From a virus (lineage: Duplodnaviria > Heunggongvirae > Uroviricota > Caudoviricetes), in IMG/VR virus record IMGVR_UViG_2534682161_000021, positions 1 through 23,803 of that record: a stretch of 23,803 nucleotides of DNA. The stretch is one strand, 5' to 3'. The notes below the pieces were generated by a model that saw nothing but the letters and a program-made list of their open reading frames with translations, was not told the DNA's origin and did no database searches. How positions within the stretch are numbered: the first letter of the stretch is position 1; the number at the start of each line of letters is the position of its first letter. This document shows positions 8,995 to 15,229 of this stretch, one piece after another. The position numbers and the translations under genes are program-made.

Positions 8995-9225
8995 TCAAGT
9001 TAAGTGTGGGTGCATTGAGGATGCCTGACTCATCAGAGGTGGCGAGGGATTTCTCCCTCGCCTGGTCTCTAACTCCTCAGGTTCGTAAGCTGTGAAGACA
9101 GCGACCTCCGTTTGGCTGGTTCGGATTCGTACCTCACAGAGATCTTTCCTCGTTACCAGTGCCGTCACAATGACAGTTAAACAGATGACAATCAGGGCGA
9201 TTAACATCGCCTTATGCTGCTTCAT
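8995..9225 (-). CDS. hok: Hok/Gef-family type I toxin, HokD-like, with a C-terminal extension
   Basis: AAGGAG RBS then MKQHKAMLIALIVICLTVIVTALVTRKDLCEVRIRTSQTEVAVFTAYEPEE, nearly identical to the recalled HokD/RelF. The frame continues 25 codons because the codon after EPEE is TTA rather than a stop. Confidence 0.8.
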   Translation of the reverse strand: MKQHKAMLIALIVICLTVIVTALVTRKDLCEVRIRTSQTEVAVFTAYEPEELETRRGRNPSPPLMSQASSMHPHLT

Positions 9226-9810
9226 AGCCTGCTTCTCCTTGCCTTTCGGCACGTAAGAGGCTAACCTACGTGTGCAAGTCATAGATATGGCCTCAGATTA
9301 ATGTTAGGCGTCTTGCAGGACGCGTAATGTTAACTGGGGCTTTTCTCTATCTGCCGTTGGTATTCATGCCTGAGACAGATAGCCTCAAGCACCCGCAGCA
9401 ATCCTACTTAACTCCCGTCACCTCGCCAATATAAAATCAATCAGAAAGGCGATCCATAAGAACAACAGCAAGACAATAAATTGCCATTACAGCCGCAATA
9501 GCGAGCGCACATTTGAGAACCAGCACGACAACCTCCTGTATTGGACGTACACCAGTCCTGATAAATATGAGGCTGTCTCATCATTGATTCAATAAAACTA
9601 TTGGGAATAGTTTCTGTGATTTTGTTCTGTAGAAATGGAACACAACAACCAGTCACCACCAGCACTTCTTTAAAAACGCCAAGTCCGACGCAAGCTAACC
9701 TTCTAGTCCGCTTTGAACGATGAGCGGAAATTGACATATCTGTTAAAGTGAATGGTTCGTTTTGCAGGGATACTTACACTGCCCCCTGTCAAAATGATAT
9801 ACCGAAGAAT

Positions 9811-9815
9811 AAGAG
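9811..9815. repeat. IS2 target-site duplication, left copy (AAGAG)
   Basis: AAGAG immediately flanks both IS2 ends. Confidence 0.85.
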
Positions 9816-9906
9816 TAGACTGGCCCCCTGAATCTCCAGACAACCAGTATCACTTAAATAAGTGATAGTCTTAATACTAGTTTTTAGACTAGTCATTGGA
9901 GAACAG

Positions 9907-10272
9907 ATGATTGATGTCTTAGGGCCGGAGAAACGCAGACGGCGTACCACACAGGAAAAGATCGCAATTGTTCAGCAGAGCTTTGAACCGGGGATGACGG
10001 TCTCCCTCGTTGCCCGGCAACATGGTGTAGCAGCCAGCCAGTTATTTCTCTGGCGTAAGCAATACCAGGAAGGAAGTCTTACTGCTGTCGCCGCCGGAGA
10101 ACAGGTTGTTCCTGCCTCTGAACTTGCTGCCGCCATGAAGCAGATTAAAGAACTCCAGCGCCTGCTCGGCAAGAAAACGATGGAAAATGAACTCCTCAAA
10201 GAAGCCGTTGAATATGGACGGGCAAAAAAGTGGATAGCGCACGCGCCCTTATTGCCCGGGGATGGGGAGTAA
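9907..10272 (+). CDS. insC: IS2 transposase OrfA (InsC)
   Basis: [56 protein letters not shown]... with an HTH domain; the track start at 9862 is an upstream extension. Confidence 0.9.
10224..10230 (+). promoter_or_regulatory. AAAAAAG slippery heptamer for programmed -1 frameshifting (insC to insD)
   Basis: A6G motif at the insC/insD overlap, the standard IS3-family frameshift signal. Confidence 0.6.
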
Positions 10273-11135
10273 GCTTAGTCAGCCGTTGTCTCCGGGTGTC
10301 GCGTGCGCAGTTGCACGTCATTCTCAGACGAACCGATGACTGGATGGATGGCCGCCGCAGTCGTCACACTGATGATACGGATGTGCTTCTCCGTATACAC
10401 CATGTTATCGGAGAGCTGCCCACGTATGGTTATCGTCGGGTATGGGCGCTGCTTCGCAGACAGGCAGAACTTGATGGTATGCCTGCGATCAATGCCAAAC
10501 GTGTTTACCGGATCATGCGCCAGAATGCGCTGTTGCTTGAGCGAAAACCTGCTGTACCGCCATCGAAACGGGCACATACAGGCAGAGTGGCCGTGAAAGA
10601 AAGCAATCAGCGATGGTGCTCTGACGGGTTCGAGTTCTGCTGTGATAACGGAGAGAGACTGCGTGTCACGTTCGCGCTGGACTGCTGTGATCGTGAGGCA
10701 CTGCACTGGGCGGTGACTACTGGCGGCTTCAACAGTGAAACAGTACAGGACGTCATGCTGGGAGCGGTGGAACGCCGCTTCGGCAACGATCTTCCGTCGT
10801 CTCCAGTGGAGTGGCTGACGGATAATGGTTCATGCTACCGGGCTAATGAAACACGCCAGTTCGCCCGGATGTTGGGACTTGAACCGAAGAACACGGCGGT
10901 GCGGAGTCCGGAGAGTAACGGAATAGCAGAGAGCTTCGTGAAAACGATAAAGCGTGACTACATCAGTATCATGCCCAAACCAGACGGGTTAACGGCAGCA
11001 AAGAACCTTGCAGAGGCGTTCGAGCATTATAACGAATGGCATCCGCATAGTGCGCTGGGTTATCGCTCGCCACGGGAATATCTGCGGCAGCGGGCTTGTA
11101 ATGGGTTAAGTGATAACAGATGTCTGGAAATATAG
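10230..11135 (+). CDS. insD: IS2 transposase OrfB (InsD), DDE catalytic domain
   Basis: 301-aa frame overlapping insC in the -1 frame; recalled InsD sequence. Confidence 0.9.
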
Positions 11136-11146
11136 GGGCAAATCCA

Positions 11147-11151
11147 AAGAG
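11147..11151. repeat. IS2 target-site duplication, right copy (AAGAG)
   Basis: Identical to 9811-9815. Confidence 0.85.
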
Positions 11152-11188
11152 TTCTTCTTCAAGAACAACAAAAAGAGATCATTCCAGC

Positions 11189-11422
11189 ATGCTGGAAACG
11201 CAGCGTGTAATGATGACGGATAAGACTCTGGCGCATTCCATGACAGCGGCAAAGGCCATAGCAGCCAATCAGATAGCTAGAATAGCCGCGAGGAAGGAAA
11301 GCCACCAGCAAAATGAAGCCATCGAGCGCTTGCGCGTAAATACGCGAATCTTAAACGGCGCAGAGATGCAGATTTACCCGCAACTGGCGACTTCAGCAAT
11401 GAACCGCATACAGACCGAGTAA
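11189..11422 (+). CDS. small helical hypothetical protein (77 aa), first gene of the plus-strand accessory module
   Basis: First ATG after the IS2 right end (the track ORF starts inside IS2); Ala/Gln-rich and helical (MLETQRVMMTDKTLAHSMTAAKAIAANQIARIAARKESHQQNEAIERLRV...). Confidence 0.3.
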   Translation: MLETQRVMMTDKTLAHSMTAAKAIAANQIARIAARKESHQQNEAIERLRVNTRILNGAEMQIYPQLATSAMNRIQTE

Positions 11423-11586
11423 GTGATGCGCTGGATGCCGTATTGAAAAGACAGCCAGAAAAGCGGTATTGGGTTCCAGAGGGTTTTAGAGGTTAAAGCG
11501 CTCACAAATCTAGCTAATTTGTAACCATCTTTAAACGTTTATGATATTGTTAAATAAAACTAAAACTACCACGGCATGATTTACCG

Positions 11587-12285
11587 ATGAAAAAAGAACT
11601 TGAAACCATACTGCCTGAGTTTGGTGAGGCAATTCGCCCTTACGTTTATAGTTACGTAACAGCAAACAAAAATGCCAATGCCAAGCACGTCCTGTTTATG
11701 GCTGGTTCGCCTGCTGCAGGTAAAACCGAGCTCTTAAATCGTCTTTTAGAACAACATGGCATCACAAACATTGTTCGAATTGATGCTGATGATTTTCGCT
11801 GGTGGTTCCCCTACTACAATGAAGAGAACTCTGTGGACTATCAGAGACCTGCCTCCAGAATGGTCGATTTTATCTACAAAAAAGCGCTATCTGAAGGCTA
11901 TCCCATTGTTATGGACTCTACTTTCTCCAGTATAGGTATTGCGGAGAGAAACTTTGATCTGGCCCTGAAGGCTGGTTATCAGGTAGCACTGAATTACGTC
12001 TATTTTGATCCGGCTTACGCGTGGGTTTTTGCCCAAGCCCGCTCTCGTAAGGTTCCGTTAGAGGTTCTTAAAGCGAACTTTTTCAAGAGCAGAGAGACCA
12101 TTGAACATATGCTCGCGAAATATGCAGGCCTATTTACACTCAATGTTTATCATCGACGGGAAGATCCTGAAAATGATGGTCAGTTCGTGGTCGACTATAC
12201 TCCTAACGTGACCCTTGAAAACTGGACTACCTCCCATAGCTGCCCATATTCAGACGTTAGCGATCTAGCGCATTTAGGTGTATAA
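11587..12285 (+). CDS. zeta-toxin-like P-loop kinase
   Basis: Walker A MAGSPAAGKTEL, followed by RIDADDFR and then MDSTF, the arrangement of zeta/PezT-type kinases. Confidence 0.6.
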   Translation: MKKELETILPEFGEAIRPYVYSYVTANKNANAKHVLFMAGSPAAGKTELLNRLLEQHGITNIVRIDADDFRWWFPYYNEENSVDYQRPASRMVDFIYKKALSEGYPIVMDSTFSSIGIAERNFDLALKAGYQVALNYVYFDPAYAWVFAQARSRKVPLEVLKANFFKSRETIEHMLAKYAGLFTLNVYHRREDPENDGQFVVDYTPNVTLENWTTSHSCPYSDVSDLAHLGV

Positions 12286-12310
12286 TAAGTGTCCTATCTA
12301 AGGAGTGTAT

Positions 12311-12937
12311 ATGTCTGTTAAAACTGAAGCCATTAAACCAGCTGCTGAAATTTCGTTGTTCGATGCATTCGGACCTAACGTGAGCGAGCGGGTACAAGCC
12401 ATCAACCGGAAGGCCGCTGAGCTTTCTATGGCTGATATGGCTCAGGTAATGGACGTGACATTATCGTCTAGGAAGAAACTGGAAGTAACTGCTGAGAGCA
12501 AATATATTCTCGATTTGCCTCAATGGCTAGAAGTCAATGCACGGAAACCTGGAGTTTCTTTTGACATGAAAGCATACACTTCTGTTGAAGTTAACAAGAT
12601 GCATGTTCCTGACTTTCGCCAGTTCCTTCCTGTAGGTGCAAATATGTTGCATACCTATTCACCAATCGGTAAAACGGGCCTGCAAGGAATTCATGATTAT
12701 TTAATCGGTGCTGTTTCATCTAAACTTCATCACTTGCAAGGTGTCGGAGTTGATGAGGGCACGTTTAAAATACTTATCCGCTATGAAGATGCTAAAACGG
12801 GTGCTCCCCGCAATGATATAGTTGAAGCTGAGTCGACAATTAGCCCAAGTTCTTTCACTAGGCTCAAGCCCCGTGTGAAAAAACTTCGCAGAAAAGGTCA
12901 TGAAATGGCGATGCATGCACTAATTGCCAAAAAATAG
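12311..12937 (+). CDS. hypothetical protein (208 aa), co-transcribed with the zeta-like kinase
   Basis: AAGGAG 5 nt upstream of ATG 12311 (the track start at 12305 is GTG); 25-bp gap after the kinase; followed by a terminator; no family recognised. Confidence 0.5.
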   Translation: MSVKTEAIKPAAEISLFDAFGPNVSERVQAINRKAAELSMADMAQVMDVTLSSRKKLEVTAESKYILDLPQWLEVNARKPGVSFDMKAYTSVEVNKMHVPDFRQFLPVGANMLHTYSPIGKTGLQGIHDYLIGAVSSKLHHLQGVGVDEGTFKILIRYEDAKTGAPRNDIVEAESTISPSSFTRLKPRVKKLRRKGHEMAMHALIAKK

Positions 12938-12949
12938 TAAGCCCTTAAC

Positions 12950-12980
12950 AAAACCTCACTCGATTGTGAGGTTTTTGCTT
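12950..12980 (+). terminator. rho-independent terminator ending the accessory operon
   Basis: AAACCTCAC-tcgatt-GTGAGGTTT followed by a T-rich tract (TTGCTTTCT). Confidence 0.55.
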
Positions 12981-13475
12981 TCTGGCGTTCTAAAAGTCAA
13001 TCACTCCAGCTCACCAGCGCGGTTAATCTCTAAAACCGATTTAGTTTTCGGCATAGTGCCCTTCGTCGTCTCTTTCTGCGTACATCAAACAACATCTACG
13101 GCCCATAGCGGATCACCATCAGCATGCAGCCACTGACTGGTTAAAGTCTCCTTTTCGTTTATCTTAGCAAGCTGGTACTGCGTGTGGATCCCGCCCATTT
13201 CTGCATACTGTCGAAAATCGATGAGATGGCCAGTCGTGTTTGTTATTGGTCTATTTTTGAAAACAACTATCAATGCTATTGGTCTGTTCTTCGTTAATTA
13301 ATATGCAATCCTTTCATGACACAGGGCTACTGTTACAGCCCTGACAACCTTAGACTTCAATCGATTCAGAGATCTCTAACGCATCATCGCCCCGTTGAAC
13401 TCACAGCGATAAGTAGACGCTGGCGGCAATAACACAGAAGTATAGCGGGAATTTGAACCACATAATTTATGTTTG

Positions 13476-13928
13476 TTAGATGGCTTTGCTTCGATATTCA
13501 ATTTCTAAAATCGCCTTTGTCATTGCCGCAATAGTTATAGCTTCTACCATAGTTAATTCAGGCCTGTTCAAGCTTCCGTGTCCAGCAGTAGGTAGTTTGT
13601 TGCGTAAATCATAAATATCTTTAACAATATCAATAAGATTCTTAGGTAATTTTGACATTTTTTCGAACTGTTTAAAAAAACCACCCAATGACTCATTTGC
13701 CACATTCGGGTTTTGAGTGATTTCCTTCGCCATAGTTTCTAGAATATTAGAGGCTGCGTGCAGTGCACCCGCAGGGTCATTATTATCCAAGCAATTATTC
13801 ATTCTATCTATTTGCTGAATGATATTTGGATGCAATCTCTTTAAGTAATCACTAGCCAATTCTTCATTGAAGTTTTTGACACTTTCAAAAACATCGCAAT
13901 CTAAATAAAATTTAGGATTGACTGACAT
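13476..13928 (-). CDS. hypothetical protein (150 aa); downstream half of a frame split by an in-frame TAG
   Basis: Very AT-rich; same frame as 13998-14342 with only one stop codon between them; C-terminal R-x7-H (RNKLPTAGH) vaguely HEPN-like. Confidence 0.4.
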   Translation of the reverse strand: MSVNPKFYLDCDVFESVKNFNEELASDYLKRLHPNIIQQIDRMNNCLDNNDPAGALHAASNILETMAKEITQNPNVANESLGGFFKQFEKMSKLPKNLIDIVKDIYDLRNKLPTAGHGSLNRPELTMVEAITIAAMTKAILEIEYRSKAI

Positions 13929-13997
13929 CCATGTATATTTCCAATCATTTTCTAAATTATCTTTTTCCGCACTACGCCTGCCAGTATCCTGATCTAT

Positions 13998-14342
13998 CTA
14001 ATCAACATATTTACACATATAATCGGCGTAATAGTGTAAATATCTAAATGATATTTCTGGGCAAAAATTACTAACTGATGCAAGGCCGCCATATTCTTTT
14101 GTAGTAACTGTTGGGACTTCTTCATCACATAAATATGAGAAACTAGTTCTTTCCCCAAATTCGCCCAACTCTTTTTCTTTCCTAGTTGCCATACCAGCTA
14201 TCATATTGATGCTTGAGAGCAAAACTACACTCTGATAGTACCGAGGACATCTGTATGAACTAGCATATGGGCATTTTGATGATGCTTTACGATTAATACG
14301 CTCTTTTTCCCACCAATTTTTATCAGGAATAATTCTTTGCAT
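13998..14342 (-). CDS. hypothetical Cys-rich protein (114 aa); upstream half of the split frame
   Basis: Ends at TAG 14000-13998; the next 23 codons are open and in frame with the ATG at 13928. Confidence 0.4.
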   Translation of the reverse strand: MQRIIPDKNWWEKERINRKASSKCPYASSYRCPRYYQSVVLLSSINMIAGMATRKEKELGEFGERTSFSYLCDEEVPTVTTKEYGGLASVSNFCPEISFRYLHYYADYMCKYVD

Positions 14343-14806
14343 AATTTATGCTACTATCTCACGAGTGAATGAATGTTTAGCCTTCTGCACAGTTTATCAG
14401 TTCCGGCATACCTACTGCTACCCCACTGATTCAACTTTAAGTTATGGATTAAAGCGATTCGGTTTCGCTAGATGACACACTAGTGTTAACTTATGGATAA
14501 AAATTTATCACTTAAAATTAACTAATGACTGTAGCGACCAAAAGTGTGCCAGAATGTTATTTTCGTCTGGCCTATTATCAATCTAATTACCCAAATTAAA
14601 GTTACTCTCCTTCATCAGCAAAAAATAAATACGCCTGTTCACTTTCTCAAAGTGTTCCTGTGTTATTTTTAAAGTTAACAACGCCGTCTATTCGTCCAAA
14701 TGTACAACAAACATCAGACTCTGGCACAACGCTGACAATGAGAATAGTTCTAGCCCTGTGCCACAGAAATGTCAATTCACATATGTATTAATGCTCTTTA
14801 ATCTCG

Positions 14807-15229
14807 TCACTTCAATAAATAGCGAACATTTCCCTGATAAAATGCCAACACTCGCTGCATTACTTCACTTTCCAGACACTCGCGACAAACCATGTTATGG
14901 CGACTATCGTAGCGACGAATTTCTCCGTCAGGTAATGACCAGATAAGGTCCGGATCAACCATAGACGGTTTCTTCCCCTTTGCCCTCGATAGTTTTTTGC
15001 GGGCGTTTTGCCAGTCCTTACGAGCCTGTTCTGACGGGAATAACCCATAGCCAGAGTTGTATACATCGCCACTGGCAACCAGCTCCCAGGCAAGAACGCT
15101 AATCAGATATCTTGTCGCACCTGTTTTAGCTTCCAGCTGTCGTAACGTCTCGCGCCCACTCTGGCGTACGAGTGCAACAACCTGTCCCTTAATTTTTTCC
15201 CGCTCTTCTTGTGTAAAAACTTTTGCCAC
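14807..15229 (-). CDS. hypothetical protein (140 aa) directly downstream of the O-like initiator
   Basis: GTG start with AGGAGG 5 nt upstream; sits where a helicase loader would be but has no recognisable DnaC or lambda-P features. Confidence 0.45.
   Translation of the reverse strand: MAKVFTQEEREKIKGQVVALVRQSGRETLRQLEAKTGATRYLISVLAWELVASGDVYNSGYGLFPSEQARKDWQNARKKLSRAKGKKPSMVDPDLIWSLPDGEIRRYDSRHNMVCRECLESEVMQRVLAFYQGNVRYLLK

Follow-up and report, generated by a model that had tools for sequence, protein, structure and literature searches.

A zeta-family kinase and its downstream partner as a candidate toxin-first toxin–antitoxin module in an Escherichia coli prophage

Results

A kinase–partner cassette in a lambdoid prophage

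The window analysed here, a whole stretch of 23,803 nucleotides from a Caudoviricetes record (IMGVR_UViG_2534682161_000021, positions 1–23,803), carries on its plus strand a small cassette in which the gene of a kinase of the zeta/PezT superfamily is followed directly by the gene of a 208-amino-acid (aa) protein, named here the partner. Apart from a copy of the insertion sequence (IS) IS2, which is the sole difference, the window is colinear with NZ_CM129880, a lambdoid prophage of E. coli MB07081, at 99.98–100% identity. A hok pseudogene with a sok RNA (~9073–9394) and the DUF977 and replication genes (from 14807) bracket the cassette, and the neighbouring phage genes are all on the minus strand. 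A first-pass annotation, made from the letters of the sequence, had singled out three plus-strand open reading frames (ORFs) and a terminator inside this minus-strand phage operon, between its replication and hok regions, with IS2 directly upstream in the same orientation (9817–11146, plus strand); all of these elements are present. The features at the centre of the analysis are the following.

11587–12285, plus strand: kinase, putative toxin, 232 aa (Pfam, PezT alignment, AlphaFold2 model, Foldseek)
12311–12937, plus strand: partner, putative antitoxin, 208 aa from its ATG (downstream pairing, motif, basic tail ending KK)
12353–12451, plus strand: N-terminal motif of the partner, residues 15–47, SLFDAFGPNVSERVQAINRKAAELSMADMAQVM, the proposed kinase-neutralising element
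12950–12975, plus strand: intrinsic terminator of the kinase–partner operon (10-bp stem, 6-nt loop, T-run)
11576–11590, plus strand: mini-ORF of four codons and a stop (MIYR; ATG ATT TAC CGA TGA), whose TGA overlaps the kinase ATG

The terminator starts 13 nt past the partner stop codon. From this layout and its recurrence elsewhere, the pair is proposed to be a two-gene operon in which the partner would be the antitoxin.

The kinase has a zeta/PezT fold and a divergent substrate site

Judged by its sequence and its predicted fold, the 232-aa protein is a kinase of the zeta/PezT superfamily, as the first-pass annotation had supposed. It matches Pfam Zeta_toxin (PF06414) over residues 28–181 (E = 7e-29; 101.1 bits, cut-off 22.3) as well as AAA_33, and its alignments to solved toxins give E = 1.4e-10 for PezT (2p5t) and E = 3e-4 for zeta (1gvn). 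An AlphaFold2 model built from 30 homologues has a predicted local distance difference test score (pLDDT) of 91.7, and the top eight chains in a Foldseek search of the PDB with this model are zeta and PezT (1gvn, 3q8x and 2p5t; E-values of 1e-10 to 1e-8, TM-score 0.62–0.67), followed by AvrRxo1 and then by generic P-loop kinases. Zeta1 of Neisseria gonorrhoeae (6epg) is only a distant match, at rank 41.

The zeta/PezT arrangement proposed for the protein holds for its catalytic core. The GSPAAGKT, RIDADDFR and MDSTF segments are all found; K46 is the Walker A lysine, D68 aligns to the catalytic D66 of PezT and R152 to PezT R157, in keeping with the roles described for the catalytic residues (zeta D67/PezT D66 and an arginine; PMC6362051). 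K46, D66, D68, R71, D110, T112, R152, R154 and R169 are invariant among the 30 kinase homologues, and the kinase is predicted from these residues to be catalytically active. The arrangement does not, however, extend to the substrate site. The GTXR motif (PezT G116–T120), which is required for binding of UDP-N-acetylglucosamine (UDP-GlcNAc; PMC6362051), is not conserved in the kinase: EGTLRT of PezT aligns to DSTFSS and the site reads STFS, with S111, T112, F113 and S115 conserved within the kinase clade. Because this motif is missing, the substrate is probably not UDP-GlcNAc, and the protein is not filed here as a UDP-GlcNAc kinase. The kinase also has a conserved C-terminal extension of its own, marked by W213, S216, H217, C219 and Y221.

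The two genes differ in their translation signals. The kinase ATG has no Shine-Dalgarno sequence, whereas the partner has a strong one, AAGGAG, at 12300–12305, 5 nt before its ATG. Mini-ORFs of 3–4 codons precede the kinase in loci L003, L005, L007 and L020 as they do in the window, and in L010 and L013 an upstream ATG lies in frame. The overlap of the mini-ORF with the kinase start, together with the absent Shine-Dalgarno sequence, may hold kinase translation low.

The partner carries a near-invariant N-terminal motif

The partner belongs to a small family. A word-indexed search returned 23 clusters of relatives, and only 34 relatives were recovered when 1.84 billion representative proteins were searched exhaustively with a profile. 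The earlier description of an unrecognised protein coupled downstream of the kinase was borne out: the partner has no match in Pfam, PADLOC, PHROGs, NCBIfam or PDB, and its gene lies 24–29 nt downstream of a zeta-family kinase at every locus inspected. Its sequence falls into four regions, compared here by the rates of nonsynonymous (dN) and synonymous (dS) substitution.

Residues ~1–48, N-terminal block: SLFDAFGPNVSExVxAINxxAAELSMxDMAxVM, near-invariant, dN ~0.09 against ~0.08 for the kinase
Residues ~49–125, middle: hypervariable, unalignable and indel-rich, with dN close to dS and both saturated
Residues ~126–190, C-terminal region: GVDxR...YxDPxTG, a conserved beta-hairpin region, moderate conservation, dN/dS ~0.35
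Last ~20 residues, tail: basic, conserved, ending KK

A motif of ~35 aa in the N terminus, LxDxFGP...AAxxSMxDM, is near-invariant across the family, and dN/dS is ~0.2 in the N terminus against ~0.35 in the C terminus. The value for the kinase is ~0.06; the kinase and the 208-aa ORF are both real genes under purifying selection. Candidate roles for the middle, the C-terminal hairpin region and the tail are a phage-sensing surface, a degron and nucleic-acid binding. The motif by which proteins bind the beta clamp is QL[SD]LF, and a reading of SLLDLFG as such a motif was rejected, because the positions that it requires vary (L, F, R or Y) and others (D18, F20 and G21) are invariant.

The pair recurs in varied contexts and decays in a coupled manner

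The kinase–partner pair occurs across Enterobacterales, in prophage, island, plasmid and chromosomal contexts in at least 8 genera. It adjoins an integrase in a Pectobacterium island, lies on chromosomal or plasmid contigs of Enterobacter and at chromosomal sites of Serratia, Pluralibacter, Pectobacterium and Pantoea, and is present on one metagenomic contig; a search of 72,556 plasmid records returned only 2 close homologues. Between loci, the kinases are 74–87% identical and the partners 33–38%. A distant kinase clade (34–40% identity, 248 aa) is found on IncF-type plasmids of Kosakonia and E. kobei (L035 2450–3879 and L036 2444–3848), where a partner of ~210 aa starts 28–29 nt downstream and bears a variant of the motif, KSLRDLFGDNLTETGKADLERAGELAAQDL, as well as a basic tail. 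Since this clade shares the layout, the kinase-then-partner design is older and wider than the clade of the window.

The manner in which the pair decays bears on the function of the motif. In L010, L011 and L024, the partner is cut to a motif-bearing 57–125 aa beside an intact kinase; it is wholly lost in L020 and L021, where the kinase ends at residue 130; and in L022 and L023 both kinase and partner are frameshifted. At the loci examined, every intact kinase retains at least the partner motif downstream. This is the pattern that would be expected if the N-terminal motif restrains a harmful kinase.

A separate observation concerns a metagenomic zeta-family kinase of 33% identity (P0059), whose stop codon is overlapped by a 54-aa ORF (L015 4695–4859) with no clear motif. 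Small partners encoded downstream may be a common feature of orphan zeta kinases.

The partner motif recurs in virulent phages

Besides the kinase-linked relatives, the exhaustive search yielded short motif-bearing proteins whose genes do not adjoin a kinase; no kinase homologue is encoded in any Enterobacterales phage record. P0086 (131 aa; E = 9e-4 over the whole library) is encoded in a small-gene array on contigs whose relatives are T5-like Klebsiella phages. Residues 33–128 of P0086 match a hypothetical protein, phrog_8901, which occurs in 80 records of Klebsiella phages, and none of these 80 matches reaches residues 1–32, where the motif sits. In the Demerecviridae, gp168 of Pantoea phage vB_PagS_AAS21 (93 aa) and gp151 of Erwinia phage KEY (105 aa) are the same gene and were matched by two independent motif queries. 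A profile of their 10-member family aligns to the partner motif over 38 columns (hhalign probability 95%, E = 3.6e-8), with 2 of the 10 members lacking the motif region.

Jumbo phages provide further examples. P0068 (55 aa, E = 2e-11) is encoded on a jumbo-phage-like contig, and P0084 (101 aa; L031 765–1070) on contigs sharing 94% identity with XbC2, a Mimasvirus jumbo phage in which XbC2_378 (L037 966–1184) is a single-motif version of P0084. XbC2_378 is inserted between two conserved genes next to a tRNA-Trp and a 5'3'-deoxyribonucleotidase gene; the syntenic site of phages CBB and GAP32 (L038 and L039) lacks the motif gene and holds only a 24-nt gap. XbC2_378 behaves as an accessory gene.

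The phage motifs also vary with the host genus, where the genera compared are the likely hosts. Those of the Pantoea and Erwinia phages are most similar to Pantoea partners, those of the Klebsiella-type and Asteriusvirus-like sequences to E. coli, Klebsiella and Enterobacter partners, and that of Mimasvirus to Pectobacterium partners. Two proteins, P0079 (L028 50–448, on a contig of only 643 bp) and P0084 on its Mimasvirus-like jumbo-phage contigs, carry two tandem motifs, one of the window-clade type and one of the Kosakonia/E. kobei-clade type, in opposite order. In each, the motif of the latter type best matches the Kosakonia/E. kobei variant, at 46% identity over ~40 residues, with pairwise E-values of 7e-12 and 6e-9. 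For DarTG, it is established that virulent phages counter the defence with orphan genes resembling the antitoxin (PMC11257639; bioRxiv 10.1101/2023.12.14.571748), and by analogy the phage motif proteins appear to be antitoxin mimics that would counter the module. Among the candidates returned by the search, two long proteins with 9 short matching stretches each, P0070 and P0076, were set aside as spurious, being an Ig-repeat protein or showing scattered unrelated Pfam matches.

The 77-aa ORF and IS2 are bystanders

The first-pass annotation had put a 77-aa ORF in the place of an epsilon antitoxin and named IS2 as a possible source of an outward promoter. The ORF is not a substitute antitoxin and IS2 does not belong to the module; both are bystanders. 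The features concerned, together with a further remnant downstream of the cassette, are as follows.

11189–11422, plus strand: first ORF, 77 aa counted from an internal ATG; the whole open frame, 11120–11422, is 100 aa
9781–9816, plus strand: left piece of a RepL-like remnant, severed by the IS2 insertion (tblastn with the RepL-like protein of L007)
9817–11146, plus strand: IS2 (insC/insD), a recent insertion, context only and outside the module
11147–11442, plus strand: right piece of the RepL-like remnant, which includes the 77-aa ORF; the homology shifts frame near 11323–11332
13085–13273, minus strand: remnant, 62-aa ORF (tblastn, 51% identity over 49 aa to L008 6832–6978)

On the Enterobacter plasmid contigs L007, L008, L020 and L021, the gene immediately upstream of the kinase is RepL-like. 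This label is a precomputed Pfam annotation, Phage_P1_RepL; our own Pfam search with the protein matched nothing, the model being apparently absent from the version used. In tblastn, residues 42–109 of the L007 protein match the E. coli locus at 46% identity (69 aa) and residues 113–149 at 65% identity (37 aa) in a different reading frame, and the first 41 residues have no counterpart there. The match occupies 11971–12177 on L001, which corresponds to 9781–9816 plus 11147–11323 of the window. By this homology, the 77-aa ORF is the first RepL-like piece read on into the wrong frame, a pseudogene remnant and not a partner of the kinase. It has no Pfam match and is not conserved as a gene: it was not found in L003 or L005, nor does it have a counterpart in L009–L013, all of which have the kinase–partner pair. 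As other loci have the pair but lack the ORF, the system consists of two genes, not three. No epsilon or PezA gene was found immediately upstream of the kinase, where the window has the RepL-like remnant, and no upstream gene is conserved across the loci.

IS2 splits the remnant at 9816/11147, 42 bp upstream of the ATG of the 77-aa ORF, and is flanked by a target duplication of 5–6 bp (9811–9816 = 11147–11152). All 8 other E. coli carriers of the cassette are without IS2 and match the window only from 11147 onward; the insertion is on that account taken to be recent and strain-specific.

Remnants of plasmid genes are found on both sides of the pair. In L008, a 137-aa gene lies convergently downstream of the partner and contains the match to the 62-aa ORF of the window. 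Since both flanking plasmid genes have left remnants, the whole RepL'–kinase–partner–ORF137' block was imported from a plasmid-like context. In L007, the 137-aa gene is itself split by an IS.

A variable cargo site in the prophage

The cassette is an accessory element and not part of the prophage core. It is rare, with 8 carriers among the 5,426 complete E. coli genomes, and the hokD–[cargo]–DUF977 site is variable, with a related prophage holding two unrelated genes between hokD and DUF977. As the content of this site varies, the possibility raised with the first-pass annotation that the module might be a conserved core gene set of the prophage family is removed.

The surroundings of the cassette hold several features of their own. 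The sok antisense RNA lies at 9220–9394, in the minus-strand region 9073–9394 (Rfam RF01794, 108 bits), and the hok/gef gene beside it is a RefSeq pseudogene without its C terminus, which places the cassette directly beside a possibly decayed type I toxin–antitoxin locus. An Rfam scan of 9000–15000 found no RNA family other than sok. On the minus strand at 13476–14342 are two low-GC ORFs (GC content 0.35–0.39), one of 150 aa and the other a Cys-rich protein of 114 aa. The 150-aa ORF has a borderline Abi_C/HEPN-like C terminus (Pfam score of 23.2 bits, just under the cut-off of 24; motif RNKLPTAGH). The stretch 13000–14800 is near-complete in 17 E. coli genomes, compared with the 8 that have the zeta cassette, and both ORFs are missing from the other zeta loci. 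They look like a second, independent defence or toxin–antitoxin-like cargo at the same prophage hotspot. A piece of ~75 bp within 13309–13389 is 92–97% identical to annotated site-specific integrase genes of ~600 E. coli genomes and may be what an earlier insertion at the cargo position left behind, either the end of an integrase gene or an attachment (att)-like site.

Discussion

A proposed toxin-first module with putative phage antagonists

The explanation that we favour, with a confidence only slightly above even for the mechanism as a whole, is that the pair is a toxin-first type II toxin–antitoxin module, probably a defence by abortive infection against which phages deploy antitoxin mimics. 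Among the new evidence, the N-terminal motif of the partner and its recurrence in virulent phages weigh most. In this mechanism, the partner would be made from its strong ribosome-binding site, the kinase having none, and the N-terminal ~35-aa motif of the partner would bind the kinase and hold it inactive; the partner would have to be supplied continuously. Should the supply fail, or the partner be titrated or degraded, for example during host shut-off by an infecting phage (a trigger that we purely infer), the kinase would be freed to phosphorylate an essential nucleotide-type metabolite, other than or besides UDP-GlcNAc. Growth would then be arrested and the infection aborted. Small accessory proteins that supply the motif in trans would allow virulent phages of Enterobacterales, both T5-like and jumbo, to escape. 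The cassette itself came to the hokD–DUF977 cargo site from a plasmid-like context, bringing the remnants of both flanking genes with it.

A number of results weigh against this explanation. No Pfam domain, DNA-binding or other, was found in any of the 23 partner homologues. In single-sequence and profile searches of PDB sequences, the partner had no significant match to epsilon, PezA or Arc1, or to any other protein of solved structure. Structure prediction with a fold search had been proposed for the encoded proteins; the AlphaFold2 model of the partner alone has low confidence (pLDDT 50, predicted template modelling score 0.17), is mostly coil and is too poor for a fold search; a model of this kind would fit a partner that folds on binding and proves nothing. 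No inverted repeat or operator palindrome lies in 11400–11620 upstream of the kinase, so that the autoregulation usual in type II systems is not evident. The single-sequence tblastn matches of the AAS21 and KEY proteins are weak (E = 0.1–9), and the relationship is convincing only at the profile level. The pattern of decay rests on ~7 loci. Finally, the module is also found in plasmid partition and leading regions, a setting that fits plain addiction.

This last point leads to the most serious of the alternatives, in which the pair would be a post-segregational killing module that stabilises plasmids, islands and prophages, with no role in defence, and the phage motif proteins would serve another purpose. 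Plasmid maintenance is the classical role of epsilon/zeta (PMC10532202), and the module adjoins RepL, ParA/SopB and PsiAB/ParB leading-region genes on Enterobacter plasmids, the integrase in Pectobacterium and hok/sok in the window prophage. We nevertheless regard this account as unlikely, for it has to accommodate orphan motif proteins in four virulent-phage sequence sets that differ in their C-terminal parts and in genome type; variants matched to the host genus and tandem dual-clade versions are hard to explain unless the phages meet the kinase, and the module is rare on plasmids. A different division of labour, to which we give a lower probability still, would make the partner a substrate, sensor or co-effector of the kinase, activated or released for instance by phosphorylation in the ELSMxDM segment, and the phage proteins decoy substrates. 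The size of the partner, far above that of epsilon or of Arc1 (98 aa; PMC4938570), its conserved C-terminal region and basic tail besides the motif, a hypervariable middle that would suit a phage-recognition surface, and the lack of a DNA-binding or known antitoxin fold among the results for the partner all speak for such a role. Set against them are the motif-only truncated partners that persist beside intact kinases, with total loss only where the kinase is truncated, as for the inhibitor of a toxic enzyme, and a ribosome-binding site much stronger than that of the kinase.

That the kinase is harmless, a metabolic or salvage enzyme forming with an accessory protein a prophage moron that gives a fitness benefit, is in our judgement very improbable. 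The missing GTXR motif would agree with this view, as would the resemblance of the P-loop core to polynucleotide, tRNA and sugar kinases as well; the best sequence and fold matches, however, are toxins (PezT, zeta and AvrRxo1), the kinase has a patchy distribution tied to mobile elements, decay couples both genes, and phages carry the partner motif. Least credible of all, and already contradicted, is a model of three genes with IS2 driving expression and the helical 77-aa ORF, 164 bp upstream of the kinase, standing in for epsilon. The ORF is open, lies on the kinase strand and is a RefSeq hypothetical protein, but it is homologous, across a frame change, to the C-terminal part of a RepL-like gene and lacks the N-terminal portion, it is part of a remnant split by IS2, it has no counterpart in L003, L005 or L009–L013, and the 8 other carriers are without IS2.

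Significance

Part of the original proposal, that of an undescribed prophage toxin–antitoxin or abortive-infection candidate, survives in a two-gene instead of a three-gene form. No defence-system model was matched in the PADLOC check, in which neither kinase nor partner had a significant match in PADLOC-DB 2.0.0; among the 30 kinase homologues, one member gave a weak match, to DolB (E = 5e-4). No description of the kinase–partner module was found in the literature, which was searched with RefSeq accessions and for zeta toxins with defence, abortive infection and PF06414, nor did the literature searched contain an experimentally shown defence role of a zeta-family kinase. One paper's claim of zeta toxins in chaperone-mediated phage sensing was discounted: it cites the toxin–antitoxin–chaperone study of Mets et al., in which the toxin is reportedly not a zeta kinase. 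A 2023 survey of PezT/zeta toxins describes many orphan toxins and searched only upstream genes (PMC10532202), a restriction that may explain how a downstream partner went unnoticed.

Zeta toxins are a textbook toxin–antitoxin family with many orphans, and one Enterobacterales clade, together with a distant second one, pairs with an undescribed downstream partner that a short motif defines. The missing GTXR motif means that the kinase may act on a new substrate, and the occurrence of the partner motif in phages connects a zeta-family kinase with phage defence in a concrete form that experiments can test, with AAS21 gp168, KEY gp151, XbC2_378, P0086, P0084 and P0068 as candidate anti-defence proteins. 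The 77-aa ORF, as a RepL pseudogene, documents the import of a plasmid cassette into a prophage cargo site. A broader claim, to which we attach somewhat less than even confidence, is that the module represents an unrecognised abortive-infection system of Enterobacterales, in which a modular antitoxin, through its N-terminal motif of ~35 aa, restrains a zeta-superfamily kinase whose substrate is not UDP-GlcNAc, and that the motif has been captured several times by T5-like and jumbo phages as a portable anti-defence peptide. If this were true, a role in phage defence would for the first time be open to experiment for a zeta-family kinase, with candidate phage inhibitors at hand, and a phage protein with tandem motifs could act against both kinase clades together.

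Comparison with known systems

The closest relatives of the module are epsilon/zeta and PezAT of Streptococcus (1gvn, 3q8x and 2p5t), with which it shares the PF06414 family, the fold, the catalytic residues and the form of a two-gene mobile cassette. The order of the genes is reversed in the window: its partner is encoded downstream, is 208 aa long and largely disordered in the model, and is unrelated in sequence to epsilon or PezA. The site of the window kinase reads STFS in place of the GTXR of zeta and PezT, the kinase has its own C-terminal extension, and the system has no omega or helix-turn-helix regulator, unlike epsilon/zeta and PezAT.

A toxin-first, antitoxin-second operon is known in the zeta superfamily from avrRxo1:arc1 (PMC4938570). 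AvrRxo1 of Xanthomonas (4z8q–4z8v) is a zeta-like NAD 3'-kinase with a downstream antitoxin/chaperone, and shares with the window the order of the genes; its substrate is not UDP-GlcNAc, and it is the next-best structural match to the window kinase after zeta and PezT. It is, however, a type III-secreted protein of 414–422 aa and Arc1 is a helical protein of 98 aa, whereas the window kinase is nearer to PezT and zeta, and the partner profile has no match among PDB sequences, the Arc1 chains of 4z8q–4z8v included. In Gram-negative bacteria, EzeT of E. coli and epsilon1/zeta1 of N. gonorrhoeae show that zeta kinases use inhibitory elements other than epsilon and can differ in their sugar-nucleotide specificity (PMC10532202). 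The inhibitory domain of EzeT is fused in cis at the N terminus and the gonococcal antitoxin is encoded upstream, whereas the partner in the window is separate and downstream.

In its proposed relation to phages, the module resembles abortive-infection toxin–antitoxin systems such as DarTG with its phage orphan antitoxins, where the logic is the same: a labile antitoxin holds the toxin, and virulent phages carry antitoxin-like orphans. Comparable counter-measures are pseudo-ToxI against ToxIN and Dmd of T4 against RnlAB. The window differs from DarTG-type systems in that its toxin would be a zeta-family kinase, and the mimicry by phage proteins is read from their sequences.

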